Shown here: positions 1,798-57,335 of the stretch, one piece after another
How positions within the stretch are numbered: the stretch's first letter is position 1
Layout of the letters: each line of letters opens with the position of its first letter
Virus record (IMG/VR): IMGVR_UViG_3300037722_000745
Location: 229,116 to 293,115 of that record
Strand: one strand, 5' to 3'
Source: a virus
Length of the DNA stretch: 64,000 nt
Position numbers and translations under genes: made by a program
The notes under the pieces: generated by a model
Told to the model about the DNA's origin: nothing
Database searches by the model: none
What the model saw: only the letters and a program-made list of their open reading frames with translations

Positions 1798-2748
1798 CTA
1801 ACCCACATGCCGAAACACTACAAGACGACCTTCCCGCTCCGCCTGGCGAATGACCGGCGGCAGAGATTCTAAACTCAACCAAGCATCCCCGCGGGTGCCG
1901 CCCGCAAAATCCGTGTCGTCGTAGTGTGCCGTCAGACAGATGCCCGCGTCGATGATCTGTAGAGTCCGAGCGTCGCATGTGCACTCGTAACGCCGCCCAC
2001 CCATCCGGAACCGCACGACCATCTCGTTGCGTCGCGGGGCCTGCCGGTGATCGAGATACTCAGCCTCACCAACCGCGAGAGCCGCCCGAGCCGCGGTCCC
2101 GAAATCCTCTTGGGCCAACGCCCGCCGGCCAGCACCATCACCGAGCTGCTCCGCGATCTCCCGACGACGGGTTTCCCGCTGCCGTTCCTCTTCCTCACGC
2201 TGAAGGCGTTCCGCCAGCTCCCGCCGACGCCGCTCCGCCTCCAACCGCCGCCACCGCTCAAGCGTGAAGGCGACATCCAAAGCCGGCGACACCTCTCGGA
2301 TATCAGCTAGCGTATCCTTGCCGTCCAGAAAGGCCGTCTGCACCTCGAACTCGGGCCCCAGAGGCATTTCTTGCTGGATGTAGACCAACGGGCCGTCCTC
2401 GGACACGCGGCCCGCAGAGACCCGTACGAAGCGATCTAGGCCCGGTTCGATGAGATGGACCCGCTCCGTCTCGCTCTTAAAGGAGGCGAGCTTCCTTTGC
2501 GAAGCCGACACGAGCCGATCGCCGACCAGGTAGCCTACCTCTCGGTACTTGAGCTGCTCCGGCTCGGGATCACACACCTCCTGGACCCGAGCCGTCCGAC
2601 CGCCCACCGAGAACCGAACCCAGCCATGCTCCGCCGGCAGCCGACCCTCGATCACCCACCGACGTGGGCCCGACCGGAGGGACCTACCCCCAATCCAAGG
2701 CGCGACAAGCGTCTCGCCTTCAGTCGCAAGTAAGTCTCTCCAACCCAT
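1798..2748 (-). CDS. Conserved protein of the Ubl cluster, putative E2-like C-terminal domain; contains an in-frame CRISPR-like repeat
   Basis: Start MGWRDLL aligns with paralog MTWRTLL; coiled coil, then IIDAGICL (cf. E2 G-x-ICL catalytic Cys) followed by a helix; E2 assignment is inference. Confidence 0.55.
   Translation of the reverse strand: MGWRDLLATEGETLVAPWIGGRSLRSGPRRWVIEGRLPAEHGWVRFSVGGRTARVQEVCDPEPEQLKYREVGYLVGDRLVSASQRKLASFKSETERVHLIEPGLDRFVRVSAGRVSEDGPLVYIQQEMPLGPEFEVQTAFLDGKDTLADIREVSPALDVAFTLERWRRLEAERRRRELAERLQREEEERQRETRRREIAEQLGDGAGRRALAQEDFGTAARAALAVGEAEYLDHRQAPRRNEMVVRFRMGGRRYECTCDARTLQIIDAGICLTAHYDDTDFAGGTRGDAWLSLESLPPVIRQAEREGRLVVFRHVG
2468..2503 (-). repeat. Solitary CRISPR-like repeat, family A
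   Basis: TTCGCAAAGGAAGCTCGCCTCCTTTAAGAGCGAGAC; same architecture as the array repeat at 14640-14894. Confidence 0.85.
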
Positions 2749-2903
2749 GGCCCAGCCACCTATTACACCGATTAGGCTGCCAGCAAACAACCAAAACGAA
2801 GGGATTCGCCCCATCAAAGTGGAATTACTACCACTGTCACGGCGTCCAAATTTTGGTTTGGGATGTCACATGAGGGTTAATTAAACACCCTGATTTCAAC
2901 GAC

Positions 2904-3185
2904 GTGTTGGGTTTGGCCTACTTCCTGCAAGCCTGGCGGAGCCCTCCTGGGGCCAAAATGGAGATGAAAATGAAAGACACAGAACGCCTGCTGCCCTGGA
3001 ACCAACACGGCGACATTCACCACACGTTCACGAACAAAGGGTCTGGAATTGTCTACCCGCACGACGAAGGCTTCCACTGGGAAGTTTTTGGTGGTGGAGA
3101 CAGCTCCTGGCACGACCAGGCGGAATCTCTACACTCAGCTAAAGCCCACGTAGAAGGCACCTTTGTGGGTCGCGGCCTGATTTAG
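2904..3185 (+). CDS. Small hypothetical protein inserted in opposite orientation
   Basis: ORF between the two paralogs, followed by a hairpin at ~3195-3231. Confidence 0.5.
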   Translation: MLGLAYFLQAWRSPPGAKMEMKMKDTERLLPWNQHGDIHHTFTNKGSGIVYPHDEGFHWEVFGGGDSSWHDQAESLHSAKAHVEGTFVGRGLI

Positions 3186-3214
3186 ATCGACAAGCGGGGC
3201 GTCGTCTAATTTCA

Positions 3215-3598
3215 CTACCAGACGACGCCCCCACCTCGTTTTTCAAGCCGGCCCGCAGAGACCCGTACAAAGCGATCTAGGCCCGGTTCGATGAGATGGA
3301 CCCGCTCCGCAGCACGGAGAACCTCCCCGTCCGCTTGTCCAGCCTGAACCGAGGACGGTACGAGGCGATCTCCAACGAGATAGCCAACCTGCCTGTGCCA
3401 CAGGCTTTCTAACTCAGGTTCGGCCAGAGCCTTGACCTGAGCCTTACGTCCCTCCAACGCAAACTCAATCCAGCCATGCTCTACAGGAAGGCTCCCCTCG
3501 ATGACCCAGCGACGGGAGCCCGACCGGAGGGACCGGCCCCCAACCCAAGGTGCGACAATCGTCTCACCTTCTTTCTGAAGTAGGGTCCTCCAAGTCAT
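3215..3598 (-). pseudogene. Truncated paralog of the N-terminal half of 1798-2748
   Basis: APWVGGRSLRSG...VGYLVGDRLV...ERVHLIEPGLDRFVRVSAGR, then abrupt stop; ~60 nt (3250-3309) nearly identical to 2409-2468. Confidence 0.85.
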
Positions 3599-4527
3599 GA
3601 CTCTCCAACCCTAATCTTCCAGGACTCCAAACTCTCACCACGTCTTCTACGTCGGGCCAACTTCAGTCTTGCTTCGGGGGTACTAAGAGCCTTCGTTATA
3701 GCCTCGCTATGTTTGGCTTTAACTTCGGGGATACTGAGTGTCTGGGCTATAGCCCTACCGCGTTTCTCTTTCTCCCCAGGTTGAGCCCATTGGCCTTTCA
3801 TCCTACGACTCATAGCGGCCAGCCGTTCCAAAGTCATTGATGCTTGAACACCAATCTTATGGCGCTTCTTCACCTCAGGTAGGGCCAGTCTCTTAGCTGC
3901 CTCAATGCTTAGCTTCTTTCGCACCTCACTTGTATACCCGGCTTTTTGAAGCTTGATGCGTTGCCCCCTTTCCTCGGCCGAGTACCCAGCCCAAGATGCC
4001 TTAAGACCCGCACTACGTTTCTCCTTCTCACCGGGTCTGGAGTAAACCTCCAACATCTTAGCTCTACGACGAGCTTTAGAATCAGGTTGACTGCAGGCCA
4101 AGATCAACGCTTCACGGTGCCTAGCCTTTACGTCGGGCCGTGCCATAGCTAACTTTACCCCAGCACTGTTCTTAGCTCGAACCTCCGGCCTATTCTGAGC
4201 CTCTTTCCCAGACACCGACATTTTCCGTCGAGTCTCTGCCGAAGGCTTCCCGTTTGACCCACCTGTCTTCAGATTGTACCCAAGCGGAGACAGAGAGGTG
4301 GCCACCCATTTAATTTCCAGCGCATCCAATTCCTCTTTCGAGGATGCCTCACCAACGACCTCAAACACGAATTTGTCTCGGCCATACTTGGCGATAGCCG
4401 CCCGCAAAGCGTGGCAATGGCTGTCAGTCCTGAAATGATGTGACCACCTCTCCGAAGGGTTGATGGTTTGACCGTGGTAACATTTTCCGCTGACCAAACA
4501 ACGAATCCTGTAAACCAAACCGTACAC
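3595..4527 (-). CDS. GIY-YIG homing endonuclease (Seg-like) with NUMOD3-type repeats
   Basis: GLVY-x-YHGQT, R, E, GYN motifs; repeated SAETRRKMS/PEVKAK segments. Confidence 0.88.
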   Translation of the reverse strand: MYGLVYRIRCLVSGKCYHGQTINPSERWSHHFRTDSHCHALRAAIAKYGRDKFVFEVVGEASSKEELDALEIKWVATSLSPLGYNLKTGGSNGKPSAETRRKMSVSGKEAQNRPEVRAKNSAGVKLAMARPDVKARHREALILACSQPDSKARRRAKMLEVYSRPGEKEKRSAGLKASWAGYSAEERGQRIKLQKAGYTSEVRKKLSIEAAKRLALPEVKKRHKIGVQASMTLERLAAMSRRMKGQWAQPGEKEKRGRAIAQTLSIPEVKAKHSEAITKALSTPEARLKLARRRRRGESLESWKIRVGES

Positions 4528-4537
4528 AACCGCAGTT

Positions 4538-6475
4538 TTAGCAAAAGGCTGCTGGCTTCTGCAACAGATCCGTCTTGAGAATGGTTTCCACGAGGGTTAC
4601 TCGCGGAGCGGCCTTTACCACTGCCCTACCTACCGGCGTGGCAGCGATCATGGCTCGGATGGTAGGCGGGATCGCGTAGGGATCCGCGAAGATCCCCTCG
4701 TCGATCATGAAGCACGGGATGCCGAGTTGGGCTGCCGTGTCCGTGACCGCGTGGTACATGGGGGAGCTGCGGACCTTCAAGAAGCCAAATGCAATCGGGT
4801 TGAGGCCCGAAGCTTGGACCGCCTTATGGAACGGGCCAGCCTCCTCATCTCCGACGAAGATAAACAACACATCCTCGTCCGGCTGAGGCTTATGTTGATT
4901 GAGAGCCCGAACCCCCGCTCCGTAGTCAGTCCCTCCTCCTGCATGGATCCCGCGGAACGCCTGTTCGACGCCCGCTGCGGATTCATGCTTAAGGGCAATC
5001 TCTCGCCCCGTAGTGTTGAAGACCGAGATGTGCACCTGGTCCTTGGGGAAGCCCTGTAGGAACTTCGCCAAGTAGCGCTTGGCTTCGGTGATCGCGTTCT
5101 GCATGGATCCCGAGATGTCCACCATGAAGTAGATCCGCAAACCCTTCACGACTTCCTCGACCGCCGCCTTGAGGGCGTTGTCGGCCGCCTCGTTCAGCTT
5201 CTCTTGGGTCGCCTTCGACCGCACTCGGGTCGCGATGTTCGCTGCCCGCATGTCGTCGGCTTCCTTAGTGGCACACTCCCACCGCTCTCGAATCTCCTGG
5301 ACCTCAAGAAGTCCAAGCTCTTCGAGCGTTGGGGTTGCGATCAAAAGGTCCTTGTTGGAAAGAGACCCTGCCTCGATGGCTGCCGCCACAATCGCCCGCG
5401 TCAGCCCCATACCCTTCGGCAGGAGCCCCACGATGCGCTTGAAGTTAGGCTTGGTCGCAACGATAGTCTCGCAGACCTGCTCCTCCGAAAGGCCCTCCCA
5501 GGACTCCGCAGCCTTGACAGCCTGGCCGATGGCGACGGTACGGTGACCCTCGTCGGCCTGCTGCTGCCCCCACCGCAGCGTCTCGAAGAACTTTGGTGAG
5601 GTCGGCTTGTACCGGCAGGCGATGGCGAGTTCGATCACCTTCGTCCGGAAGCCCGCCTTGACGAGGCCCTCCAACATCTGAGGGTTCTCTTCACGGTACC
5701 GGAGCCACTTCTCCGCCGCCTTGGGCCAACGACCCATGAACGGCCGACGAGCGGACTTGCCAAAGCCCAGCTCCCGGTTGATCTCGGCCACCTGCGGCAG
5801 CCGTAGGATGTCGTGGATCCGCATTAGAAGCTTGGGATCGAATGTCTTGATCTCGTTCTTCTGTTGTGCCCCGTCACCTTGAGAGCGGGACCGGGTGAGC
5901 AGCAGCATGGCCTCACCGACATCCCGGTAATCCTCGTCGAAGAACAGGACCTTGCCGTTCTCAACAACCGGGTCACCCTTGCGGTATTGCACGAGCATGA
6001 ACGCCGCGAGAATGACCTTCAGGTCCCGGTGCTCCTGCCCGAATGCGTAGCTGGCCCACTTGGCGGCGAACTCGTTGTCGAGCTTCCAGACCTCGGCGAC
6101 CTGCTTGTACATCCAGATCACGACCTCCGGGTAGAGGCCGGGCGGCTGGTAGCGACCAACAGCGCGGTTGCCGTCCTTAACGATGACATCGCCCTGAAGC
6201 ACTGGGGCGAGCGTCGCGGGGTTCCGACCCGTGGTCATCTTCCCGAGCTTGACCTTGGTGCCCTTCCGACGGCCCACGCCCTTGCGAAGCTCGTAGACGA
6301 TCTTGTCGCCCTCTTCCTCTGCGTGGGTCACCGGCAGCCACTTCGTGCCCACCACGGAGCCAGGATCTGGAATCACTACGCCTGGTCGGTTGTGCATTGC
6401 GTGATCAGAATACGAGAGGACCGTCTGGAGGATTCTCTCAGCCGGCCCGAGTGCGTTCTGTTCGTGATTTGGCAC
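4538..6475 (-). CDS. vWA-domain protein with TROVE/Ro60-like helical N-terminal region
   Basis: MIDAS DISGSM...GGTDYG...VGDEE; DNEFAAKWASYA and AESWE segments resemble TROVE; GTG start after GAGAGG. Confidence 0.7.
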   Translation of the reverse strand: MPNHEQNALGPAERILQTVLSYSDHAMHNRPGVVIPDPGSVVGTKWLPVTHAEEEGDKIVYELRKGVGRRKGTKVKLGKMTTGRNPATLAPVLQGDVIVKDGNRAVGRYQPPGLYPEVVIWMYKQVAEVWKLDNEFAAKWASYAFGQEHRDLKVILAAFMLVQYRKGDPVVENGKVLFFDEDYRDVGEAMLLLTRSRSQGDGAQQKNEIKTFDPKLLMRIHDILRLPQVAEINRELGFGKSARRPFMGRWPKAAEKWLRYREENPQMLEGLVKAGFRTKVIELAIACRYKPTSPKFFETLRWGQQQADEGHRTVAIGQAVKAAESWEGLSEEQVCETIVATKPNFKRIVGLLPKGMGLTRAIVAAAIEAGSLSNKDLLIATPTLEELGLLEVQEIRERWECATKEADDMRAANIATRVRSKATQEKLNEAADNALKAAVEEVVKGLRIYFMVDISGSMQNAITEAKRYLAKFLQGFPKDQVHISVFNTTGREIALKHESAAGVEQAFRGIHAGGGTDYGAGVRALNQHKPQPDEDVLFIFVGDEEAGPFHKAVQASGLNPIAFGFLKVRSSPMYHAVTDTAAQLGIPCFMIDEGIFADPYAIPPTIRAMIAATPVGRAVVKAAPRVTLVETILKTDLLQKPAAFC

Positions 6476-6520
6476 GATCCACCTCTCTCGCAACCCTCCG
6501 CATGGGAGGGGAATTGCCGC

Positions 6521-6556
6521 GTCTCGCCTCAGCGAGCAAATTACCGCTAAGGAGGA
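6521..6556 (-). repeat. Solitary CRISPR-like repeat, family B (Cas12j-like 3' half)
   Basis: ...TTTGCTCGCTGAGGCGAGAC in the 5' leader of the vWA gene. Confidence 0.7.
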
Positions 6557-6666
6557 TGACGGCGCCCGTGGTGTCTACTACACCGAAAAGCCAGAACTCG
6601 ACCGAGTTAAAGAGAGCGGGTTTTTGCTGGACCCTGGATTCCCCCGGAAGGGCAGGTCGAGTTTAG

Positions 6667-6738
6667 TCGGGGTGACAGGGATCGAACCTGCGACCTCTCG
6701 CCCCCAAAGCGAGCGCTCTACCACTGAGCAACACCCCG
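6667..6738 (-). tRNA. tRNA-Pro(TGG)
   Basis: Cloverleaf, loop TT-TGG-GG, GGTTCGATCC. Confidence 0.92.
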
Positions 6739-6790
6739 AGAAATCTGTTATACGCTGGCTAGACTACGACAACCACGTGCTCCGAGAGAT

Positions 6791-7021
6791 TTGACCGTGG
6801 ATCACACCTACGACCGCCGCCCGAAGACCGCCACTGATCGCGAGTTCCAAGAGATGGCCGAGATCTACCTCAAGAAGCTCGGCTACTCGCCTAAGCAGGT
6901 CCGCAGCTGGACTCGCAACATGGCCCAGGCCATCGAGAAGGCGTTGAAGTCCTCGCGTGAAACTCGCGAAGTTGAATACCATATCGGTCTCGAAGAGGAA
7001 GGCGAGGAACGTCTTCGCTAA
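6791..7021 (+). CDS. Hypothetical protein
   Basis: ORF with phage-like codon usage. Confidence 0.55.
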   Translation: MTVDHTYDRRPKTATDREFQEMAEIYLKKLGYSPKQVRSWTRNMAQAIEKALKSSRETREVEYHIGLEEEGEERLR

Positions 7022-7222
7022 CCATCAGACTTCACCCCGGTTCTTCGTTTTCCATACGTTCTGTATCTGTGACACAAGGCGCACACCACGTCGCATTTGG
7101 CAGCCTCTTCCTTGGTTCGTTTGAGAGAGCCCGTCCTGCTTGCCGAGCCGAGATCGAACGCCTTAGTTCTTGGATCGCGATGATCGAAGTCCATCGCCCA
7201 ATACGGATGCGAATACCACGGG
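7018..7222 (-). pseudogene. HNH endonuclease C-terminal remnant
   Basis: DFDHRDP...KCDVVCALCH; fused to a tRNA-Pro 5' half. Confidence 0.75.
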
Positions 7223-7225
7223 TGT

Positions 7226-7262
7226 TCCCGAAACAGGCGTCCTACCAGTGGACTACACCCCG
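7226..7262 (-). pseudogene. tRNA-Pro(CGG) 5' half only
   Basis: CGGGGTGTAGTCCACTGGTAGGACGCCTGTTTCGGGA, with no 3' half. Confidence 0.7.
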
Positions 7263-7263
7263 G

Positions 7264-7335
7264 TACGCGCAGAAGGATTTGAACCTTCATTTCTCGCTCA
7301 TCAGACGAGGGTCCTAACCGTTGGACGATGCGCGC
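7264..7335 (-). tRNA. tRNA-Ile(GAT)
   Basis: Cloverleaf, loop CT-GAT-GA. Confidence 0.9.
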
Positions 7336-7502
7336 GTGGTCTGAAATTATGCTGCAAGCCGGCACAGGTGTTCGTACTACGACCTACGCACGGCTCAAGC
7401 TCGGAAAGCCAGTTTGAAGAGTATAGCGAGTTTTACCCAAGTTTAGCGTGATCCAGATAAACTCAGGTAAACTCGCTATACTTCCGCCCCCAAGACGACG
7501 AT

Positions 7503-7709
7503 TCAGTCCTTGTCGTCGTCGGAGTCGTCGTTCTTCTTCTTCTTCTTGATGTTCTTCAAAAACTCGGGCGGAAGCTCACCGGCTACCCGGATACCAAGGC
7601 CCACGAGATCCCGGGCCAGCACCTTGCGGGACGGGCTCTCGGTCTGGGAGTAGGCCAGTAGCTTGCGAAGTTCCGCTTCAAGTTCATCGGCCGATGCGAT
7701 CTTGTTCAT
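7503..7709 (-). CDS. Small hypothetical protein with K/D-rich tail
   Basis: MNKIASADELEAELRKLLAY...KKKKKNDDSDDDKD; a related remnant (KISTPQELQSELR) lies at ~12349-12395. Confidence 0.7.
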   Translation of the reverse strand: MNKIASADELEAELRKLLAYSQTESPSRKVLARDLVGLGIRVAGELPPEFLKNIKKKKKNDDSDDDKD

Positions 7710-7933
7710 GCCTTCACCGGCTCACAAAACGTTCAGCGGACTACTTCCCCTTGGGGGACCAACCTACCCGAAATAACCGATAGGGCCTCATAGGACTCGA
7801 TCAATGCCTGTCTGGTAGGGATGGTATAACCTAGCCACACAGACAGGTCTCTTTGGCCCAAACCACCCACGATGCTGAGCAAGTAAATCACAGCGAGGAA
7901 ATCGTTCATAGGACCTCTATCCCGCCCGAGTTG

Positions 7934-8107
7934 TCAGCCCCGCCGCTTGTTCTTGTTGCGGGGCTTCTGTGCCCCACGCTTGACCCAGCGGCCGGCATTC
8001 TCGTTCCGATGGGGCGGGCAGAACGAGCATGACAGATCGACGACCCGCTTGACGCGCTTGTATGTCCGACTGTCGTTCTCTTCCTTGAGCTGCTGTGCTG
8101 CCTTCAT
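7934..8107 (-). CDS. Small basic protein with CxxCxxH
   Basis: LSCSFCPPH, basic tail. Confidence 0.6.
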   Translation of the reverse strand: MKAAQQLKEENDSRTYKRVKRVVDLSCSFCPPHRNENAGRWVKRGAQKPRNKNKRRG

Positions 8108-8128
8108 GTTGAGCCTCGCTAGGATGGG

Positions 8129-8211
8129 TGCAAGCGGAGGGAGTCGAACCCTCACGGGCTTTCGCCCACAACGACCTCAACGTTGCGCGTCTGCCATTCC
8201 GCCACGCTTGC
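8129..8211 (-). tRNA. tRNA-Leu(GAG)
   Basis: Cloverleaf with long variable arm. Confidence 0.93.
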
Positions 8212-8253
8212 AGTAGTATGTCATGGGTTTCTCCCATTCCGTTACTCGTGGCT

Positions 8254-8328
8254 TGGAAGCGGGAGGTGGAGTCGAACCACCGACCTCGAGCTTATGAGGC
8301 TCGCGAGCTGCCACTGCTCCATCCCGCT
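8254..8328 (-). tRNA. tRNA-Met(CAT)
   Basis: Loop CT-CAT-AA, CCA encoded. Confidence 0.9.
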
Positions 8329-8572
8329 ACGAAAATTCTACGAACTCCGGATCCACCTCGTCGTTGGGGATCGTCGTCAAGAGGGTCGCGATCGACTTCC
8401 GTTGAAGGTCGTTGGTAATATCCTCCAATGTTGGCACCGTACCCCCATCAGCACCAATGAAGATCCTACCGCGACCCCGCTTTCCGAGTTCCAACCTCCT
8501 GCGTTCGCTCGGTTCCACCCAGAAGGTGATGCCCGCGAGGTTGGCTGTGTATGTGATGCGGACTCGTGTCAT
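8327..8572 (-). CDS. Hypothetical protein
   Basis: ORF filling an inter-tRNA gap, preceded by the GGTGTAGT motif. Confidence 0.6.
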   Translation of the reverse strand: MTRVRITYTANLAGITFWVEPSERRRLELGKRGRGRIFIGADGGTVPTLEDITNDLQRKSIATLLTTIPNDEVDPEFVEFS

Positions 8573-8591
8573 GCTGAAAAGACTACACCAG

Positions 8592-8663
8592 CTCGGGCGC
8601 AGGGACTCGAACCCCCGATTAGATGAACCAGAATCACCCGTCCTACCATTAGACGACGCCAGA
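8592..8663 (-). tRNA. tRNA-Gln(CTG)
   Basis: Cloverleaf, loop TT-CTG-GT; some stem mismatches. Confidence 0.82.
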
Positions 8664-8671
8664 AAAACGTT

Positions 8672-8929
8672 TCACGCTCCTGAAGCTCTGCGCTGGACCC
8701 GTTTCGACCACGCCTTGAAGCCTCCAACCCTAGCTCCCAGAAGGCTTTTAGCAATGTCGTGGCGACTCGCGCCTACCGCCATCACATGGCGAGGGTAGCC
8801 CCTCTGCACCATCACGTAAAAGGGCCTGCGTAGCTGCTGGTAGAAGGCCAGCCGGATCGCTGTCCGCAGATCCTCAGACCGTTCCTTGCCGTTCGCTCGG
8901 CGGATGTACGGCTGGAACTTGCTCCGCAT
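8672..8929 (-). CDS. Hypothetical protein
   Basis: ORF packed behind 8931-9146. Confidence 0.5.
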   Translation of the reverse strand: MRSKFQPYIRRANGKERSEDLRTAIRLAFYQQLRRPFYVMVQRGYPRHVMAVGASRHDIAKSLLGARVGGFKAWSKRVQRRASGA

Positions 8930-8930
8930 G

Positions 8931-9146
8931 CTAGTTCAACCGTCGCAGCAACAGCGGCACAGGAGCATCGAAGTCCCAGACATGCTGTGCGTGGCACTTA
9001 CCGCAGTCGTACTGGACGAACCCCTCCGGGGTGTGCTTGAACGTGGTCGCCTCGTCAGTCACCAGCTCGTTGTTGCACTGCGGGCAATAGACCCGAGTAA
9101 ACGTCTGCTGCTTGGGCTTCAACAGGTTTCGCAACCACTGGAACAC
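8931..9146 (-). CDS. Small Zn-ribbon protein
   Basis: CPQC...CGKC. Confidence 0.65.
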   Translation of the reverse strand: MFQWLRNLLKPKQQTFTRVYCPQCNNELVTDEATTFKHTPEGFVQYDCGKCHAQHVWDFDAPVPLLLRRLN

Positions 9147-9160
9147 GTCTGTTATCCTTT

Positions 9161-9195
9161 GCTCGGGCGGAGGGAGTCGAACCCCCACGGGCTCG
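9161..9195 (-). pseudogene. tRNA (Leu-type) 3' fragment
   Basis: GCCCGTGGGGGTTCGACTCCCTCCGCCCGAG with no matching 5' half. Confidence 0.65.
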
Positions 9196-9458
9196 AACGG
9201 TGAGGTCCTAAAGGAGGACTATGCTGAGCGCCTGATGGCTCTCTGCGGGACCCCAAAGCTGTTGAGTCCCATCCTGGCTTTCCCAATGGCCTCCACCACC
9301 TGTTGTATCATGCGCAACCCAGATCCAGCCTGCTTCTTTAAGTCAATGGCCATAGGGTGGAGCTTGAAGGCAGCCCAAGCGAAGTTGCACAGCTCCTCTT
9401 ACTGTTACCGCCAAACACCAACTTCAATGTTTCCCGCATCGAAGAGCCTTTCGATCCT

Positions 9459-9494
9459 GTCCCACTCTTGATGGAGGTGGGCTTCCCTTACCAT
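9459..9494 (-). repeat. Solitary CRISPR repeat, family A
   Basis: 28 nt (GTCCCACTCTTGATGGAGGTGGGCTTCC on +) identical to the array repeat. Confidence 0.92.
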
Positions 9495-9534
9495 TTACCC
9501 TACGGATGTAGGGCCTGTATTTGTTTCGCACTAG

Positions 9535-9605
9535 CTCGGGGTGAGAGATTCGAACTCCCGTAAACAGTACCAGAAACTGCTGTCCTACCATTAGACGAAC
9601 CCCGA
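9535..9605 (-). tRNA. tRNA-Gln(CTG)
   Basis: Cloverleaf, loop TT-CTG-GT. Confidence 0.9.
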
Positions 9606-9617
9606 AAAACTACCGCC

Positions 9618-9848
9618 TCACGCGCTGCCCGTATAAGCCACGCTGAAAACCATCCCCGACATCACGAGCACTTCCTGGCCGTGAGTCAAGCTCCCGTTCA
9701 TCTCGTGGTACTTCTCCCGTAGCTTGCAATGAAACACCACCGTCGGGTTGTACTCCGACTTGAGTTCCGCCAGCTCAACCACATCCTCGTAGCTCAGAAC
9801 CTCTGCGTCGGTCTGGAAGTCCTGTCCATTGACTTTGAAACTGGTCAC
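9618..9848 (-). CDS. Multi-ubiquitin-type single beta-grasp protein
   Basis: FKVNG...LSYEDVVELA...GSLTHGQEV...GMVFSV...T pattern of the Multi_ubiq domain. Confidence 0.75.
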   Translation of the reverse strand: MTSFKVNGQDFQTDAEVLSYEDVVELAELKSEYNPTVVFHCKLREKYHEMNGSLTHGQEVLVMSGMVFSVAYTGSA

Positions 9849-10126
9849 GGTTCCTCCGCGATTCGGGCCAGAACATGCCCATGGCACGGATCCGGGACAC
9901 ACCAGCAGCCCAGCACCTTACCACGGAGTTCCTGCTTCACTAGGCGGAGCAACGAAGGCTTACCGCGGATCCAAGTCTCGTACTTCTCGATAGCTTCCTC
10001 ACGAGTCGCGACCTTGAACTGTGCCCGAGTGTTCTCTTTGTGGCTGTAAGGATTACCGTAGATCGACGGACGTCCGACGTAGACATCGTAGCGATCTCGA
10101 CGACAATGCACGACCCGAGTGCTCAT
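9845..10126 (-). CDS. DUF4326 family protein
   Basis: VYVGRPSIYGNPY...LGCWCxPxPCHG. Confidence 0.9.
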   Translation of the reverse strand: MSTRVVHCRRDRYDVYVGRPSIYGNPYSHKENTRAQFKVATREEAIEKYETWIRGKPSLLRLVKQELRGKVLGCWCVPDPCHGHVLARIAEEP

Positions 10127-10212
10127 CCGGCTCCCACTTGAGATATGGACTCAATGGTCTGGGGGACCATTCGGTAGCGTCGTGTCTTAGGCATGAGATC
10201 CACTACACCACT

Positions 10213-10303
10213 TGGCGGAAGGTGAGGGGATCGAACCCTCGCACGCCTCATCAGCGCGACCTCAGATTAGCAATCTGGTGTCTTACCACTCGACCAACCT
10301 TCC
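10213..10303 (-). tRNA. tRNA-Ser(GCT)
   Basis: Long variable arm, G discriminator, CCA. Confidence 0.92.
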
Positions 10304-10307
10304 AAGG

Positions 10308-10391
10308 CGGAGGATGAGGGACTCGAACCCCCACACGCTTTCACGTACCTCCGATTTCAAATCGGGTGCCTTGCCATTCAGCCAATCCTCC
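10308..10391 (-). tRNA. tRNA-Ser(TGA)
   Basis: Long variable arm, loop TT-TGA-AA. Confidence 0.92.
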
Positions 10392-10397
10392 AAAGAG

Positions 10398-10480
10398 CGG
10401 AAAGAGAGGGAGTCGAACCCTTGCCGTTGCCGACAACCGGTTTTCGAAGCCGGCGGCCCACCACTGAGCCTTCACCTTCC
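10398..10480 (-). tRNA. tRNA-Ser(CGA)
   Basis: Long variable arm, loop TT-CGA-AA. Confidence 0.82.
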
Positions 10481-10597
10481 AAGTGATGCGATAGCCGCCA
10501 CGAGTCCCCGTCGGCCACTGCAAACCGGCAGCCCCTGACAGAATCCTCGTTGACGACTTACCCGGGTTTACCCTCGCTCGAATCCACACGAGGCGGG

Positions 10598-10671
10598 TGG
10601 TGGCGACGAGGGGACTTGAACCCCAGCCGACAGCCTTATGAGAGCCGCGTCCTAACCCGTAGGGCGTCGCC
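10598..10671 (-). tRNA. tRNA-CAT (Met or Ile2)
   Basis: Loop CT-CAT-AA, ACCA end, atypical D arm. Confidence 0.8.
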
Positions 10672-10697
10672 GTGGTGGGGCCGAAGCCCCAAGCACA

Positions 10698-10904
10698 TCA
10701 CCACCTCCACTGGATGCTGTGCCGATGTGCCCGATCATCAAAGTCATCGTACCTGCCGTGCCAGATCAGTCGGAGTTCCCTGGCTCGGTGTCCCTTCCAA
10801 AAGAACCGCCGGTCATCTCGGGGGCTCCGAGCCGCCCAATTGGAACCTTGGCCTTCCCGATTGGGGCTGTGCCGTCCGTTCTTACGTCGATGATTCCGTC
10901 GCAT
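10698..10904 (-). CDS. Small Arg-rich protein
   Basis: MRRNHRRKNGRH...; RBS GGAGG. Confidence 0.55.
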   Translation of the reverse strand: MRRNHRRKNGRHSPNREGQGSNWAARSPRDDRRFFWKGHRARELRLIWHGRYDDFDDRAHRHSIQWRW

Positions 10905-10935
10905 GTCGCCTCCAGGTTCAAAGACCTAAAGGCGG

Positions 10936-11408
10936 CTCTCCTCTCGTGATCAGCATCTTGCTGCTCCTTGTTGGTTTTGACGGTGGAACGTCGCCAAAAA
11001 CTCTCTTATAGGGCACCCTGCCTAAGGAGCCCCACCCCATGGATCCCAACCGCATCATCCACAGATACCTAACAGCAGCATCCTCGGTCATGACGTGGCC
11101 AAAGTTAAAAGGCCACCTCATCAAGCTCACTAAACCCGTTTCTGTGAGCAAGGGTAAGCCAGGAAGGAAGAAGGTGAAATTCGACAAAGGTGTTACCTTT
11201 GTGATGACTGGGGGAGTTGTGAAAGGCACCCTTTTGGAGTCCCACCTCTTTGAAGCCACCCTTGAAGGCGACCATTATTGGATCCAATCAAACATACATC
11301 CCTTTGGGATGTACCCGCATAAATTCATGACAAAAGGCGGTAAGGAACTAGGTCCTGAGTTCTTCGCTCAGTGATCCTCTCCTCTCGTGATCAGATCTTG
11401 CTGCTCCT
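10936..11408. repeat. ~33-bp direct repeats (10936-10968, 11377-11408) flanking an inverted gene
   Basis: CTCTCCTCTCGTGATCAG(C)ATCTTGCTGCTCCT occurs twice. Confidence 0.9.
11039..11374 (+). CDS. Hypothetical protein (lower GC, antisense to tRNA operon)
   Basis: ORF with AAGGAG upstream, between the direct repeats. Confidence 0.7.
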   Translation: MDPNRIIHRYLTAASSVMTWPKLKGHLIKLTKPVSVSKGKPGRKKVKFDKGVTFVMTGGVVKGTLLESHLFEATLEGDHYWIQSNIHPFGMYPHKFMTKGGKELGPEFFAQ

Positions 11409-11414
11409 ACCTAG

Positions 11415-11488
11415 CGCCTCTGGAAGGATTCGAACCTTCAAGCTTCGGTTTCGTAGACCGACGATCTGTCCAATTGATCTACAGAGGC
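11415..11488 (-). tRNA. tRNA-Arg(ACG)
   Basis: Cloverleaf, loop CT-ACG-AA. Confidence 0.92.
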
Positions 11489-11503
11489 ATTCGTTTTTAG
11501 AGG

Positions 11504-11579
11504 CACCCCCGGGAGGACTCGAACCTCCGCATGACCCGGCTTCGGAGGCCGGCGCTCTGTCCAACTGAGCTACGAGGGC
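11504..11579 (-). tRNA. tRNA-Arg(CCG)
   Basis: Cloverleaf, loop CT-CCG-AA. Confidence 0.92.
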
Positions 11580-11683
11580 TTGTGGTGATTTGCCATTCGC
11601 GTGCGGGATCAACCACCAACCCGTAGACGCACTCGTAGGTCGTTCCTACGCGCAATCACCACGCTACGGTGCCGAAACACCGG

Positions 11684-11756
11684 CACTCCCGACAGGACTC
11701 GAACCTGCATGATCCTGGTTAGAAGCCAGGCGCCTATCCAGTTAGACTACGGGAGC
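11684..11756 (-). tRNA. tRNA-Arg(TCT)
   Basis: Cloverleaf, loop CT-TCT-AA. Confidence 0.92.
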
Positions 11757-11760
11757 ATTG

Positions 11761-11796
11761 GTCTCACTCTAGAGGGAGGTGAGCTTCCCTCGCAAC
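11761..11796 (-). repeat. Solitary CRISPR-like repeat, family A
   Basis: GTTGCGAGGGAAGCTCACCTCCCTCTAGAGTGAGAC, 4 nt upstream of tRNA-Arg(TCT). Confidence 0.88.
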
Positions 11797-11829
11797 TACA
11801 ACACACCGAAGGCACGCCGGCAGAGCCTT

Positions 11830-11907
11830 TGGAGGCGCAGGCGGGACTCGAACCCACGAAAATACCTGTTTTGCAGACAGGCCCCTTAGCCGCTTGGGTA
11901 CTGCGCC
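11830..11907 (-). tRNA. tRNA-Cys(GCA)
   Basis: Cloverleaf, U discriminator, CCA. Confidence 0.92.
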
Positions 11908-11952
11908 GAAACCTTCACCTACTAGAAGACGAGAACGCCGAAGCGTTACAAG

Positions 11953-12023
11953 TGCGCGTGGAGGGGATCGAACCCTCATCTGCTGGGTGGAAGCCAGCTA
12001 TCCTACCATTGAACGACACACGC
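11953..12023 (-). tRNA. tRNA-Gly(TCC)
   Basis: Cloverleaf, loop CT-TCC-AC. Confidence 0.9.
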
Positions 12024-12099
12024 TTATGCCCCGTAGTTGGCGGCCTCCCAAGGCAAAAGTCAGAACTCACAAGGCGGCGGAAGCTGTACTTCTCTCAGC

Positions 12100-12327
12100 T
12101 TAGGAGGTCTTTGTGTGTCTTTTGTACTGACCGGAATTGGCTCCGTATTCACGTTTGATCCAATTAGCAGGTCCTATTTTCAAGGCACCCTTGACTTGGC
12201 CCGAGTTCGCACCGAACTCTTTCTTGATCCACGCCAAGGCTTTAGCGTCTTGTTCCTTCGTATGCGCTGCTGTTCGAAGAGCTAGCTCGACAAGCTTCGT
12301 AGCAATTTCGACCCTACTGGGATTCAC
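12100..12327 (-). CDS. Hypothetical protein with internal WIKxExGANSGQ duplication
   Basis: ORF; repeated motif. Confidence 0.6.
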   Translation of the reverse strand: MNPSRVEIATKLVELALRTAAHTKEQDAKALAWIKKEFGANSGQVKGALKIGPANWIKREYGANSGQYKRHTKTS

Positions 12328-12470
12328 GCCTTGGCTGTAGGCAAGAATTTAACGAAGCTCAGACTGTAACTCTTGAGGGGTCGAAATTTTGCGCATAACA
12401 CCATAGAAAAGCCATAAATGGCTTAGCAGCTTACCTTGAAGGCTGGCACCCAGGACATCGAACTCGAAGC

Positions 12471-12749
12471 TTATGGGGAGCAACCCCACATGGAAAGAGT
12501 GTTCGGGATCCTCTGCGCATGCTCGGGCCAATCCTTGAACTTGTCGCCGTAGTTCTCTCGACACAACCGAGTGATCGCGATGTGAGAACTGAGACACACA
12601 GACATGATCTTACGCGTCTCCCTGGCACTCAATCCAGAAGCCGTAGGCCCAGACCTCCACAGAGCCGACAACTCCTCCTCACTAAGAGGAGCTTCCAGAC
12701 TCCCTCCCAAATCGGACAAGGAAGCGTCAATATCCGCTGTAGAGGCCAT
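12471..12749 (-). CDS. Hypothetical protein
   Basis: MASTADIDASL... downstream of the CGGTGTAT motif. Confidence 0.5.
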   Translation of the reverse strand: MASTADIDASLSDLGGSLEAPLSEEELSALWRSGPTASGLSARETRKIMSVCLSSHIAITRLCRENYGDKFKDWPEHAQRIPNTLSMWGCSP

Positions 12750-12822
12750 CTCTCGGGTTTTTGATTGTGTTTCTGATGGGCGGAATATACACCGCAGGCA
12801 GCATGCCCCCGAGCGCCCAAAG

Positions 12823-12913
12823 CGGAAGCCGGAGAACTCGAATCCCAAACGACCCCGAGAGGCCGTTCCCACCGCTTTCCAAGCGGGTCCAGTCCCTAAC
12901 TGGTTCAGCTTCC
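12823..12913 (-). tRNA. tRNA-Ser(GGA)
   Basis: Long variable arm, loop TT-GGA-AA. Confidence 0.85.
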
Positions 12914-12936
12914 AAGGGGAGCCTGTTGAGGGAATC

Positions 12937-12972
12937 GTCTCGCCGCAGCGAGCAATGAGTGCATGACTACAC
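12937..12972 (-). repeat. Solitary CRISPR-like repeat, family B (Cas12j-like)
   Basis: GTGTAGTCATGCACTCATTGCTCGCTGCGGCGAGAC (36 nt), followed by a tRNA 3' end. Confidence 0.85.
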
Positions 12973-13020
12973 CAAGCCAACAAGCGCTGATGGAAGCAGG
13001 CCAGTTGCGTGACTACGTAG

Positions 13021-13097
13021 TGGACCTGTCGGGAGTTGAACCCCGATCCCGGTTACCACCGTACCAAGGTGGTGCTCTGCCACTGAGCTATACGGGC
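13021..13097 (-). pseudogene. Chimeric tRNA: Thr(GGT) 5' half fused to the tRNA-Ala 3' end
   Basis: Acceptor strands do not pair; 3' part matches the tRNA-Ala 3' end at 14408-14430. Confidence 0.75.
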
Positions 13098-13433
13098 GTT
13101 GAACCGAAAGACAACCCTCTCTCTAGCTTGCCTCCTAGACTCCATATCGCGTAAGGCATGCCTCAGAATTTGAAGGTTGACGATCGCATCGTAAAGCTCC
13201 CGCTCCTTCGCTCCGCTGTCTATAAGCCTCTCTAGTTTATCGATCTCTCGTCGGATCCGATTCCGATCTTGCAAACGCTTAGGGAGCCGCAAGCCTGTGG
13301 TCCGATCCTGACGCTCAACCTTCCTAAGTTGCTGCTCGATATAGTCCACCTCTTTTGGGGTCAAGGATCGAGGCAGTAGTCCAGGCCGAGGGAAAGTCAC
13401 CTCAAAAGGACGGTCCGGTTTGGGTACCGGCAT
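13053..13433 (-). CDS. Hypothetical coiled-coil protein
   Basis: ORF coupled to the upstream gene; tail reads into the tRNA remnant. Confidence 0.6.
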   Translation of the reverse strand: MPVPKPDRPFEVTFPRPGLLPRSLTPKEVDYIEQQLRKVERQDRTTGLRLPKRLQDRNRIRREIDKLERLIDSGAKERELYDAIVNLQILRHALRDMESRRQARERVVFRFNARIAQWQSTTLVRW

Positions 13434-13939
13434 CAGATCTGACCTAACACCTTTCGAACCAACCGCATGAACGTCAGTCCAGCGAGTTCAGGATCTGTGC
13501 TGAATGCGGTCTCCGTGATAGACCGTTTGAAGTCAGCTCCGCTCAAGGGTTTGTGAGGCACATACCCGAACGAAAGTAACGGAAGACCGCCCCGGATTGA
13601 CAACATCAACGTGAAGGTCTCCAAAGCGGGTCGAGTGGAGAAGTAGTAGTACAGCTTCATCCGCTGCTGGGTAGCATTCATGTAGAAACGATCGCCATGG
13701 AACTTCCGCCTGAATGCTGAAAGGGCCTTGGGTAAGAGGATCTCGATAGACAACTTGGCCGCATCAAAGACCTCTTGCGCAGACGTTGGCACCCCGACTT
13801 CAGGAGGACCCCAACGAGCTTGCCGGGCCATCCTCTCGGACCACGGAACGACCCATGACGGGATTTCCGGCTGCCAGTCCCCAAGGGCTACCTGGTAACC
13901 CCACCTGGCCGCCACGCGCTTTGCAAGAGTACCCATCAC
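13433..13939 (-). CDS. Hypothetical protein
   Basis: 168-aa ORF, GAGG RBS; N-terminal LAKRVAARW motif. Confidence 0.7.
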   Translation of the reverse strand: MMGTLAKRVAARWGYQVALGDWQPEIPSWVVPWSERMARQARWGPPEVGVPTSAQEVFDAAKLSIEILLPKALSAFRRKFHGDRFYMNATQQRMKLYYYFSTRPALETFTLMLSIRGGLPLLSFGYVPHKPLSGADFKRSITETAFSTDPELAGLTFMRLVRKVLGQI

Positions 13940-13968
13940 CTCGTGCAGTGTGATGGGTAGATTAGTGA

Positions 13969-14043
13969 GGCTACCTGACGGGACTCGAACCCGCTCTCAC
14001 CGGACCCACAATCCGGCCGCCATCCTATCGGCGCTCAGGCAGC
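13969..14043 (-). tRNA. tRNA-His(GTG)
   Basis: G-1:C73, loop TT-GTG-GG. Confidence 0.88.
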
Positions 14044-14143
14044 AGAAGTATCACAACGGTCCCGGGCCGGGTGCGACGAGCTAGCCACACGCGCCGAGTA
14101 GCTAGCTCGGACGCGCTGCGTTCTGTGCCCCGTTGTGACACGG

Positions 14144-14226
14144 TGCGAACGAGAGGAGTCGAACCTCCACGACCTCGCGATCAGCTGGGTTTGAGCCAGC
14201 CGCGTCTGCCATTCCGCCACGTTCGC
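14144..14226 (-). tRNA. tRNA-Leu(CAA)
   Basis: Long variable arm, loop CT-CAA-AC. Confidence 0.92.
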
Positions 14227-14240
14227 GTGAGCACTACTCA

Positions 14241-14276
14241 GTCTCGCTCTTAGGGGAGGCGAGCTTCCTTTGATCC
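14241..14276 (-). repeat. Solitary CRISPR-like repeat, family A
   Basis: GGATCAAAGGAAGCTCGCCTCCCCTAAGAGCGAGAC. Confidence 0.85.
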
Positions 14277-14323
14277 CATACAGGAAATCCTTCTTGCAAG
14301 CTACGGTGCTGGAGACAGGAGTC

Positions 14324-14359
14324 GTCTCGCCGCAGCGAGCAATGAGTGTATGACTACAC
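14324..14359 (-). repeat. Solitary CRISPR-like repeat, family B (Cas12j-like)
   Basis: GTGTAGTCATACACTCATTGCTCGCTGCGGCGAGAC, followed by a tRNA 3' end. Confidence 0.85.
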
Positions 14360-14404
14360 CAAGCCAACAAGCGCTGATGGAAGCAGGCCAGTTGCGTGAC
14401 TACG

Positions 14405-14476
14405 TGGTGGACCTGTCGGGAGTTGAACCCGCAAACTCTCCTTGCAAGGGAGAGCCCTGACCCGTCAGACAAGCCC
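14405..14476 (-). tRNA. tRNA-Ala(TGC)
   Basis: G3:U70, loop TT-TGC-like (TTGCAAG), ACCA; short D arm. Confidence 0.78.
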
Positions 14477-14480
14477 ATTT

Positions 14481-14561
14481 AGGTCCGAGGCGAATTGTCG
14501 ACTCCGCGTCTCCAGCTTCCGTACGCAATAGCTGGCGCTCTAACACTGAGCTACTCGAACC
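14481..14561 (-). tRNA. Atypical tRNA-like gene with expanded anticodon loop
   Basis: Acceptor, D and T arms pair; anticodon stem CCAGCT/AGCTGG closes a 12-nt loop; T loop GTCGACAA. Confidence 0.6.
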
Positions 14562-14563
14562 AG

Positions 14564-14635
14564 CGGAGCCGAGGGGACTCGAACCCCCCTCACTGGCGTG
14601 ACAAGCCAGCCGCCTCACCCGATGCGTACGGCTCC
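14564..14635 (-). tRNA. tRNA-Asp(GTC)
   Basis: Cloverleaf, loop TT-GTC-AC, G73. Confidence 0.9.
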
Positions 14636-14639
14636 GTAA

Positions 14640-14894
14640 GTCCCACTCTTGATGGAGGTGGGCTTCCGTTGTGACCGTGCGGATTTCGGAGATGACGCTG
14701 AAGCCGTCATCGGTCCCACTCTTGATGGAGGTGGGCTTCCGTTGTGACTTCGCTCCGATCGCAATCCCGCAGGATCGCGACCAGCCGTCCCACTCTTGAT
14801 GGAGGTGGGCTTCCGTTGCTGCCAGGCAGGACGGCTCGAAGTGGCTAAGATGATGTTGGTCCCACTCTTGATGGAGGTGGGCTTCCGTTGCTGC
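14640..14894 (-). CRISPR. Orphan CRISPR array: 4 x 36-nt repeats, 3 spacers (37, 38, 36 nt)
   Basis: Repeats at 14640, 14713, 14787, 14859; minus strand G(T/C)(C/A)(A/G)CAACGGAAGCCCACCTCCATCAAGAGTGGGAC; unique spacers; leader on the high-coordinate side. Confidence 0.96.
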
Positions 14895-15318: not shown

Positions 15319-15325
15319 GGGTATC

Positions 15326-17025: not shown

Positions 17026-17026
17026 A

Positions 17027-56144: not shown

Positions 56145-56154
56145 AAAGACGACC

Positions 56155-56853
56155 ATGCAAATACTGGTCATCGATGACGACACCAACCCTAACTGCACTG
56201 AATGTGTGATGCCGAAACGTAAAGACGAGCAATGGTTTCTGTTCGATTTGGATAGCTCCCTTGCGGACTTCGAAACGGTGATGATCGAGGAACTCGTTGC
56301 GATGCAGCAACCGGAGGAACCCCCACTTTCCACTGAGCATTGGTACCCAAACCGATTGCCAGATTGGCTTGTAGCCCGTAAGGACGCAATCAAAAAGGCC
56401 CACGGCTTTTGGCTCGGCCTGCCCCCAATCAAATTCGGGATCGAACTCTACCACGCAGCCGGTCAGTGGGGCTACGAACGGATGATCCTAACCAAAGGAC
56501 CGAGACGGGTTGTGAACGCCTGGACTGAGAAGGTTCAGTGGTGTCAAAAGTATGTCCCCGAAGCAGGGATCACCATCACCCACGACAAAGGTCTCGTCTA
56601 TGGTAAGGTGCTTTACGACGACTTCCCGCCGTATATCCTTCGCTGGTTGGAGTGGAGGCCCCGCGGAAAGGTTCTCATGCTAGACGCTCCGCACAATCAG
56701 GGCTTCAAACATCCCAATGTTCTGCGTTGTTTCCGAAGTCCTTTGGCAGAGCAGGCGGACGCGATCAGGGGCTTCTTAGGGATCAGCGACCCTCCAGAGA
56801 AGCACTCCACAGCCGCGCCGGTGACGCCGGCTGTGGAGGACCATGAACCATAA
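56155..56853 (+). CDS. HAD 5'(3')-deoxyribonucleotidase-like protein
   Basis: FDLDSSLADF, ILTK, EK..W, K, LYDD, PHN. Confidence 0.85.
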   Translation: MQILVIDDDTNPNCTECVMPKRKDEQWFLFDLDSSLADFETVMIEELVAMQQPEEPPLSTEHWYPNRLPDWLVARKDAIKKAHGFWLGLPPIKFGIELYHAAGQWGYERMILTKGPRRVVNAWTEKVQWCQKYVPEAGITITHDKGLVYGKVLYDDFPPYILRWLEWRPRGKVLMLDAPHNQGFKHPNVLRCFRSPLAEQADAIRGFLGISDPPEKHSTAAPVTPAVEDHEP

Positions 56854-56855
56854 AA

Positions 56856-57050
56856 TTTCAATTACGAGGGAGGCTTTCACCTCCCTCAGGCTCGATGAGC
56901 CTACGAGCTTTTCGAGAGCCTCAGTGGTGTGTTACCCTCGGGAGTCTCTCGCAACCCTGAGAGTTCCTTGAAAATTCAATAGGTTAGATGGATCCGGATC
57001 CCGCCGCTCTCGCAGCCTGAGGGAGGCTTTCACCTCCCTCGTAATTGAAA
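56856..57050. repeat. Two 36-bp class 1-like repeats in inverted orientation flanking a CRISPR-leader-like sequence
   Basis: 57015-57050 GCCTGAGGGAGGCTTTCACCTCCCTCGTAATTGAAA; 56856-56891 is its inverse except for the 6-nt loop. Confidence 0.85.
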
Positions 57051-57212
57051 ACCATTAGCGTCCCGGTGATCAACAGCCAACGTTGCCCCACATGAGCAGT
57101 TGCGAAGCTCGATCTGTCCGCCCAGACCATCGAGCTGAAAACCAATGAATTTCAGCTCTTCCTTGGTTTTGTAGGAAACCCCACAACAGGTGCAAGTAAC
57201 GATCGTTCGCAT
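57030..57212 (-). CDS. Small Zn-ribbon protein
   Basis: CTCC...ELRNCSCGATL; TTGTAATAC upstream. Confidence 0.65.
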   Translation of the reverse strand: MRTIVTCTCCGVSYKTKEELKFIGFQLDGLGGQIELRNCSCGATLAVDHRDANGFQLRGR

Positions 57213-57299
57213 GGCTTTGGATCGTATTACAACCTAACGGAGCCAAAATTTAAAGAACCGGTGTAGTGTTGTCTGGCCGATGCCGCAGCGAAAGGGGCC

Positions 57300-57335
57300 C
57301 CCGCAAGGGAAGCTCACCTCCCTAAAGAGTGAGAC
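57300..57335 (+). repeat. Solitary CRISPR-like repeat, family A
   Basis: CCCGCAAGGGAAGCTCACCTCCCTAAAGAGTGAGAC. Confidence 0.88.

Follow-up and report, generated by a model that had tools for sequence, protein, structure and literature searches.

The window analysed here, a stretch of 64,000 nucleotides (nt) from a virus (IMG/VR record IMGVR_UViG_3300037722_000745, positions 229,116 to 293,115), carries eight solitary 36-nt repeats, here called family A, which are scattered outside a four-repeat array of the same family and have the layout of repeats from CRISPR systems. Judged by this layout and by the effectors linked to it in related phages, family A is Cas12m (type V-M)-related and does not belong to an uncharacterised type V family, as the initial annotation of this DNA had supposed. 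The solitary copies probably originated by recombination, and a present function as guides is plausible, if somewhat doubtful; the reading favoured here, held with a little less than even confidence, is that recombination-derived repeats are kept as in-situ guides against sister alleles. It is supported by the effector link in relatives, by the junctions between repeats and neighbouring DNA, by the co-orientation and perfect stems of all nine intact solitary copies of the record and by a single-repeat precedent, as one repeat suffices for a working guide of the phage Cas12r according to passages of bioRxiv 10.64898/2026.04.20.719267. CheckV puts the completeness of the 323-kb virus record from which the window is taken at 68%, and the record contains 43 genes for tRNAs and transfer-messenger RNA (tmRNA). 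All eight solitary copies reported in the initial annotation were confirmed in position and strand, and the features concerned are as follows:

2468–2503, minus strand: solitary family-A repeat, in frame in a conserved phage gene that runs from a start codon near 2748 to a stop at 1798
3249–3308, minus strand: segment of a truncated paralogue (3598–3215), 59 of 60 nt identical to the sequence directly after repeat 2468
9459–9494, minus strand: solitary family-A repeat with the array-type stem, 39 nt after tRNA-Gln
11761–11796, minus strand: solitary family-A repeat, 4 nt before tRNA-Arg(TCT)
14241–14276, minus strand: solitary family-A repeat, with tRNA-Leu(CAA) starting 14 nt downstream and a solitary CasPhi repeat ending 47 nt upstream
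14640–14894, minus strand: family-A array of four repeats and three spacers, no adjoining cas gene, last repeat 4 nt before tRNA-Asp
14895–14955, minus strand: leader of the array; it contains a CTCGCAA...TTGGAAA motif and shows about 70% similarity to its counterpart at the effector-linked array on contig L006
17122–17157, minus strand: solitary family-A repeat, around which 13 nt of the tRNA-Met 3' end are duplicated
17358–17393, minus strand: solitary family-A repeat that precedes a tRNA gene's 3' half, from the anticodon arm to CCA
17826–17861, minus strand: solitary family-A repeat between tRNA-Asn and tRNA-Trp
57300–57335, plus strand: solitary family-A repeat with a CGGTGTA motif on one side and a metallopeptidase gene on the other

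Seven of the eight solitary copies are intergenic and one is intragenic, and no second family-A copy lies within 100 nt of any of them. Only copy 14241 has any repeat nearby, which is of CasPhi type, and the repeat-spacer-repeat unit is absent at the solitary sites. A search for the layout together with a complementary 5-bp stem gave 12 matches in the window, compared with 0 in each of 200 order-2 Markov simulations. An Rfam scan of the window returned no family at gathering score over the family-A copies, its 29 matches being tRNAs and the tmRNA. Contigs of the separate run X3 span copy 2468 and most of the tRNA cluster with zero differing letters, and because they reproduce this DNA identically, the family-A signal is not an assembly artefact. 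Chance, assembly artefact and a known Rfam family were thus each rejected as the origin of the signal.

Covariation had been proposed for two pairings and was assessed in an alignment of 18 copies, 11 from the record and seven from other contigs, the rows of which are related. Pairing in the 5-bp stem reaches 98.9%, with two-sided change at two of the pairs, so that the compensatory change in the hairpin is borne out. In the pseudoknot, the pair 11:20 next to the AG varies between AU, UA and CG; however, consistency is confined to the inner 3 bp. Those outer three pairs that the initial annotation had quoted hold in a part of the copies and are unpaired in 8 to 12 of the 18 rows, and copy 17358 shows an A-C mismatch in the core, which is one uncompensated change. 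Two-sided change was seen in 16 cells against a shuffled mean of 5.5 (0/500 shuffles), and controls with a slid register were 25–51% paired, compared with 84% observed; measures that count pairs or pair types were not significant (95/500 and 456/500 shuffles). With its pseudoknot, stem, G-A pair and 3' AC, the layout matches the CRISPR RNA (crRNA) of Cas12m as far as pairing can be read from sequence, and together with the covariation this upholds the type V pseudoknotted crRNA handle that had been suggested. Indeed, six published Cas12m repeats in rows of the PMC11013384 supplement share the family-A layout, and the scaffold geometry described in passages of PMC10442227 agrees with it.

The record itself encodes a CasPhi (Cas12j) protein of 718 amino acids (PDB 7lys, E 2e-159), which has the catalytic D, E and D motifs and whose gene adjoins a seven-repeat array of a second repeat family, family B. 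The repeats of family B have the CasPhi layout (ATTG-stem-4-nt loop-stem-AC), from which family A departs with its 11-nt loop and the pseudoknot; CTCGC and CTCAC stems occur in both families. Family A as the repeat of the record's CasPhi was rejected because the layouts differ and the CasPhi array is of family B.

A metagenome scan led to a Cas12m-related gene in a related phage: on contig L006, a close family-A variant (CTCAC/GTGAG stem) forms an array upstream of a gene for 789 amino acids (P0002). The best PDB matches of P0002 by sequence are Cas12m (E 4e-24), and with its predicted fold (predicted local distance difference test score 87) ranks 1 to 4 are Cas12m structures (E 1e-19 to 7e-15). 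In all five IMG/VR loci of the P0002 clade, the gene is accompanied by an adjacent array whose layout is similar and whose leader is related. P0002 has Arg at the RuvC-I residue; among 151 homologues, 67 have Asn, 30 Asp and five another residue, the motif not being matched in 49. The P0002 effector is predicted to have lost cleavage and to bind DNA without cutting. With 132 phage-borne representatives of Cas12m relatives at E<1e-30, a large phage-borne clade of predicted nuclease-dead Cas12m relatives comes into view; phage-borne Cas12m as such has been reported in parts of PMC12607003 and of bioRxiv 10.64898/2026.09.14.751636. Contig L006 also has three copies of the repeat at 4903-5036, where they overlap with the 3' end of the cas12m-like gene; one of the three is in frame.

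In total, the metagenome scan gave 12 matches, of which four represent two assemblies of one effector locus and five are lone or paired copies in phage-like contigs; the remaining three (L008, L010 and L015) have a broken stem or pseudoknot and were dropped as likely chance. A strict pattern scan of viral contigs gave 0 matches, and in loose scans (13 viral and 120 genome loci) 4 of the 133 loci had a perfect stem, none with the pseudoknot pair and none with a neighbouring effector. No host array of family A was found among the 120 loci, a partial scan of 10 of the 64 parts of the genome collection, and all arrays found were phage-borne. Single-protein searches with CasPhi and P0001 in viral contigs gave no matches. 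The initial annotation had derived each stem variant from a different functional array. At least two variants do occur in array repeats, CCCAC/GTGGG (window array) and CTCAC/GTGAG (effector-linked L006 array); the CTCGC/GCGAG stem, carried by four of the eight solitary copies, did not turn up in any family-A array among the sequences examined. In runs X1, X4, X6 and X7, a further family-A copy lies on a contig outside the record, and a start codon that has a Shine-Dalgarno-like motif follows around 20 nt downstream of it. The depth of this 6952-nt contig in X1 is 44.8, compared with 45–61 for the phage's own pieces, and it may come from the missing part of the phage genome.

Over the whole record, a profile and a covariance model detected 17 family-A copies, namely four in the array, nine intact solitary and four decayed ones; one intact copy (genome 195664) and all four decayed copies, including those at genome 49877 and 202553, lie outside the window. 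The co-orientation with local transcription described in the initial annotation was found for 8/8 copies in the window and extends to 9/9 intact solitary copies in the record (p ~0.002 if the strand were random), to 3/4 decayed family-A copies and to 8/10 family-B strays. Furthermore, 0/45 stem pairs are broken in the nine intact solitary copies, though the loop differs in nearly every copy. The strand bias and the intact stems suggest that the copies matter as RNA.

Dispersal of such repeats is recurrent but patchy across huge phages, and tRNAs are not needed for it. Phage G006 (321 kb), which has its own Cas12m-like gene and one tRNA gene, carries eight dispersed loci of a covarying variant that is unlike the one in its main array. 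Tandem or decayed copies are among them, and at three loci an open reading frame (ORF) begins 13, 33 and 34 nt further on. Because this Cas12m-bearing phage has eight dispersed loci with a single tRNA gene, tRNA processing is not required, and the release of stand-alone guides by tRNA processing, as once envisaged, is not general: in the window, two of the eight copies lie outside the tRNA cluster, one of them in coding sequence. G007 encodes the effector and has two dispersed loci, G005 has one decayed copy near its array, and L014 carries a family-A-type copy in frame in a kinase-like gene. G011 possesses one lone CasPhi repeat and one lone Cas12m-type repeat and no effector; its Cas12m-type repeat sits between two alleles of a gene end (18/20 nt), the downstream allele extending 36 nt to the stop codon. 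No dispersed copies were found in the complete CasPhi phage G010 or in G002 (87% complete). Array spacers at G007:65553 and G006:44875 match their own genomes (36/36 and 35/36 nt), and a non-cutting effector could use such spacers for self-regulation.

This distribution bears on the explanation that the copies are neutral recombination debris, in which recombinogenic repeats pile up at tolerated sites, their covariation is inherited from donor arrays and they have no present role. The patchy occurrence, with no copies in the complete phage G010, fits it, as do the four decayed copies of the record, the tandem zero-spacer and decayed copies in G006 and L017, the covarying variants already present within a single array of G005 and the strays found for all three CRISPR types of this genome (family A, family B and type I-C-like). 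The debris explanation is nevertheless rather improbable, as it has to account for nine of nine intact copies on the sense strand and for unbroken stems despite the divergence of the loops; of these, the strand bias could also be produced by a transcription-linked origin.

The junctions of the solitary repeats look like products of repeat-spacer recombination, judging from the sequences on either side. At copy 2468, the variable loop between GDRL and ERVHLI has 15 codons, compared with 18 in the orthologues of L018, L019 and L021 (three rows representing two distinct sequences, to which the paralogue was added), and it is also shortened relative to the truncated paralogue 840 nt away. Outside the 59/60-nt stretch, this paralogue is around 70% identical to the copy-2468 gene. 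The segment is preceded by GTGCTGC and is the only perfect self-match of any family-A downstream sequence (36/36 nt, TGC upstream). The orthologous site of copy 11761 in L018 is repeat-free with CAC upstream; the first 12 downstream bases are common to both, and 18/20 nt after the repeat match. At copy 17122, the intact version of the duplicated 13-nt sequence directly follows TTC. The 5' junctions, by contrast with such precise 3' junctions, are ragged, with a net loss of three codons at 2468, the 13-nt duplication at 17122 and the loss of the tRNA 5' half at 17358. A precise 3' and a ragged 5' junction is what spacer-protospacer recombination or a one-ended Cas1-Cas2 integration would leave, and the two are indistinguishable here. 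Two suggestions of the initial annotation, that the copies are escape scars or stand-alone guides, fit these junctions. Solitary repeats of the CasPhi type (family B) in the window include the following:

6521–6556, minus strand: in the leader of a VWA-domain gene
12937–12972, minus strand: followed by a tRNA 3' half, in a 113-nt block common with 14324
14324–14359, minus strand: after a TGGTGTA motif, directly followed by the T-loop/acceptor 3' half of a tRNA-Leu
16511–16546, minus strand: directly followed by a T-loop 3' half ending in CCA

Three of them abut tRNA T-loop halves at one common register. The sequence downstream of 14324 matches the syntenic tRNA-Leu(CAG) of the relative G002 in 19/20 nt, with GGTTC upstream there; 12937 and 14324 share one origin and are not independent events. 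Accordingly, three of the ten off-array CasPhi repeats of the record are directly followed by GAYTCC, two of these three sharing one origin. Of the 26 occurrences of this T-loop motif in the 12.4-kb tRNA region, 17 follow TTC. The protospacer adjacent motif (PAM) is TBN for CasPhi and TTC for type I-C. For Cas12m2, passages of PMC10442227 give TTN.

The favoured mechanism can be set out in four steps. The repeat type sits in arrays beside Cas12m-related genes of other large phages, whose effector is predicted to bind without cutting. A spacer derived from this locus, or from the allele of a sister phage, would then recombine with the locus, placing the repeat directly 5' of the former protospacer with a precise 3' junction, a replaced PAM position and a ragged 5' junction. 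Insertions would survive if they keep the frame or lie between genes, on the transcribed strand. Finally, a Cas12m-like protein from the unassembled part of the genome or from a co-infecting relative is predicted to load the handle and the next 17–20 nt, thereby silencing repeat-free sister alleles and sparing the carrier locus, whose PAM is lost. In a self-arming variant of this proposal, which is unlikely, the repeat placed over the PAM would immunise the native locus and turn it into a guide against PAM-bearing sister alleles. If this were true, CasPhi cutting or Cas12m-like silencing in co-infections would let the repeat spread like a homing element, as a protein-free 36-nt gene drive acting via phage-encoded effectors.

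Several observations weigh against in-situ guides made by recombination. No Cas12m-like gene is present in the assembled 323 kb of the 68% complete record or in 4/4 other CasPhi phages. The four decayed copies here and the decayed or tandem copies in G006 mean that many copies are not maintained. The recombination step has no demonstrated driver for family A, because a dead nuclease makes no break. If tRNA 5' ends were processed at 11761 and next to the last array repeat, the handle would be left with only 4 nt behind it. No PAM of family A is derivable, as three self-matches have CGG, ATC and TGC upstream and the empty site for 11761 has CAC; among the nine intact solitary copies, a perfect target in the DNA searched exists for only one, namely the phage's own paralogue. 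The repeat-free alleles come from distant relatives (around 65–75% nucleotide identity), so most junctions cannot be polarised, and the repeat-free L018 site could be a deletion product. No protospacers for the three array spacers were found in the DNA searched, and a comparison of four sequencing runs with window 500-19500 gave no repeat-free alleles among the matches listed, which were dominated by tRNA cross-matches.

The positions next to tRNA genes and the lack of the effector gene in the assembled record fit RNA anti-CRISPR decoys. In that case, strongly expressed handles, their tails being short or irrelevant, would titrate away Cas12m-like effectors that rival phages or the host encode, and each variant would suit another effector orthologue. 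Two handles lie 4 nt and one lies 14 nt before a tRNA, where RNase P would leave nearly spacer-less RNAs; several intact variants occur in one genome, G011 has a lone copy and no effector, and RNA anti-CRISPRs (Racrs) were shown for types I and V-A in passages of PMC10651486. However, the phage keeps an intact, leader-bearing family-A array, G006 and G007 encode the effector yet carry dispersed copies, the partial genome scan revealed no host array of family-A type, and decoys predict neither in-frame intragenic copies (2468 and L014) nor junctions at the PAM register. Decoys are thus regarded as fairly unlikely.

The proximity of some copies to start codons (57300, 195664, the decayed copies 49877 and 202553 and the three G006 loci mentioned above), together with the co-orientation of all nine intact copies, could instead point to cis-acting sites, where handles in the phage's own transcripts would be bound or cut by the effector, so that polycistronic RNA would be divided or the gene that follows repressed. 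According to parts of PMC11013384, Cas12m carries out the processing of pre-crRNA within the repeat, and standalone repeats regulate transcription in other CRISPR types, as described in sections of bioRxiv 10.1101/2023.03.03.530964. This alternative is more doubtful still: the positions are not common between phages, the relatives G002 and L018 share these genes and tRNA clusters but have no repeats there, in this genome it is the decayed copies that lie nearest to start codons, and cutting within the coding sequence at 2468 would destroy that message.

The genome surrounding the repeats has further CRISPR features. Apart from families A and B, the record contains several type I-C-like arrays, and five I-C-like strays lie off these arrays. 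A CTCGCAA-like motif is common to the leaders of all three CRISPR types, which suggests that one adaptation machinery may serve all of them. One I-C spacer of the record matches the record's own DNA after TTC. In the window, two divergent I-C-like repeats (56855-56890, minus strand, and 57016-57051, plus strand) flank a leader-like CTCGCAA...TTGAAAA motif 250 nt before copy 57300, and three more lone I-C-like repeats occur elsewhere in the genome. An IS607-like element with a TnpB-type ORF and an adjacent serine-recombinase-type gene spans genome 292778-294579, at the window end and beyond; its ORF (genome 292778-293626), the second TnpB-like one, was rejected as a Cas12m-like effector because it is IS607-like and its match to the Cas12m-like profile is confined to the zinc ribbon.

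Some tRNA-related and neighbouring loci also deserve mention. The 113-nt block (12931-13043 and 14318-14430) consists of a tRNA-Ala 3' end, a promoter-like motif and the CasPhi handle, and was copied into a tRNA-Thr(GGT) locus, giving a chimeric, low-scoring tRNA; its motif-plus-handle cassette also abuts the RNase HII stop codon, antisense, at genome 11450. Window 16490-16640 (minus strand) holds a tRNA-like RNA that contains a long insertion; up to the T-loop, a CasPhi handle takes the place of its 3' part, and G002 has the longer form of this RNA. In G002, at around 87.6-88.4 kb (L157, in L156), ARAGORN calls two adjacent tmRNA genes, one of them permuted. Next to the copy-2468 gene, a GIY-YIG endonuclease gene and the truncated paralogue (window 3215-4527, minus strand) are inserted between this gene and the VWA gene, and in L019 the orthologues of these two genes are adjacent.

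Solitary repeats, mini-arrays, multi-system huge phages and Cas12m are known already. In the titles and opening parts of abstracts of the open literature, no work was found on dispersed, multi-copy covarying Cas12m repeats or on repeat insertions at the PAM register in phages' own genes. Solitary viral repeats are usually read as anti-CRISPR decoys, and the junctions described here point to another origin and use, in which repeat-spacer recombination would replace the PAM position and make guides from the phage's own genes and tRNAs. With nine intact natural handle variants and cognate Cas12m-like effectors in relatives, the guide, decoy and processing models are separable directly in Escherichia coli.

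Compared with type V-M Cas12m (MmCas12m2, GoCas12m and MsCas12m; passages of PMC10442227 and PMC11013384), the repeats share the 36-nt arrangement of 5' pseudoknot strand, A-G, stem, loop, stem and AC, and the linked effectors of relatives share the fold, the non-canonical RuvC-I residue and an array beside the gene. In contrast, these effectors are larger (789 amino acids for P0002, compared with around 600) and phage-borne, P0002 having Arg at the RuvC-I position where its clade mostly has Asn, and in the phage studied here the repeats lie dispersed and the assembled genome lacks the gene. The huge phages with CasPhi of PMC7162821 likewise combine CasPhi and its array with type I-C-like arrays and a large tRNA cluster; the passages of that paper on these phages describe no dispersed single repeats and no array of Cas12m type. 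The viral mini-arrays of SPV1 and SPV2 are, according to parts of PMC11656645, minimal CRISPR units predicted to target related viruses; unlike them, the solitary family-A copies are without a second repeat, and their putative guide is the phage's own contiguous locus. As with the Racrs and solitary repeat units presented in passages of PMC10651486, the main text of which does not mention Cas12 beyond type V-A, single viral repeats lie away from cas genes in the transcribed orientation, some after a promoter-like motif. They differ from these units in that the family-A repeat matches a phage-borne and not a known host system, many copies and variants occur per genome, one copy is intragenic (SRUFinder masks ORFs) and several junctions lie at the PAM register.

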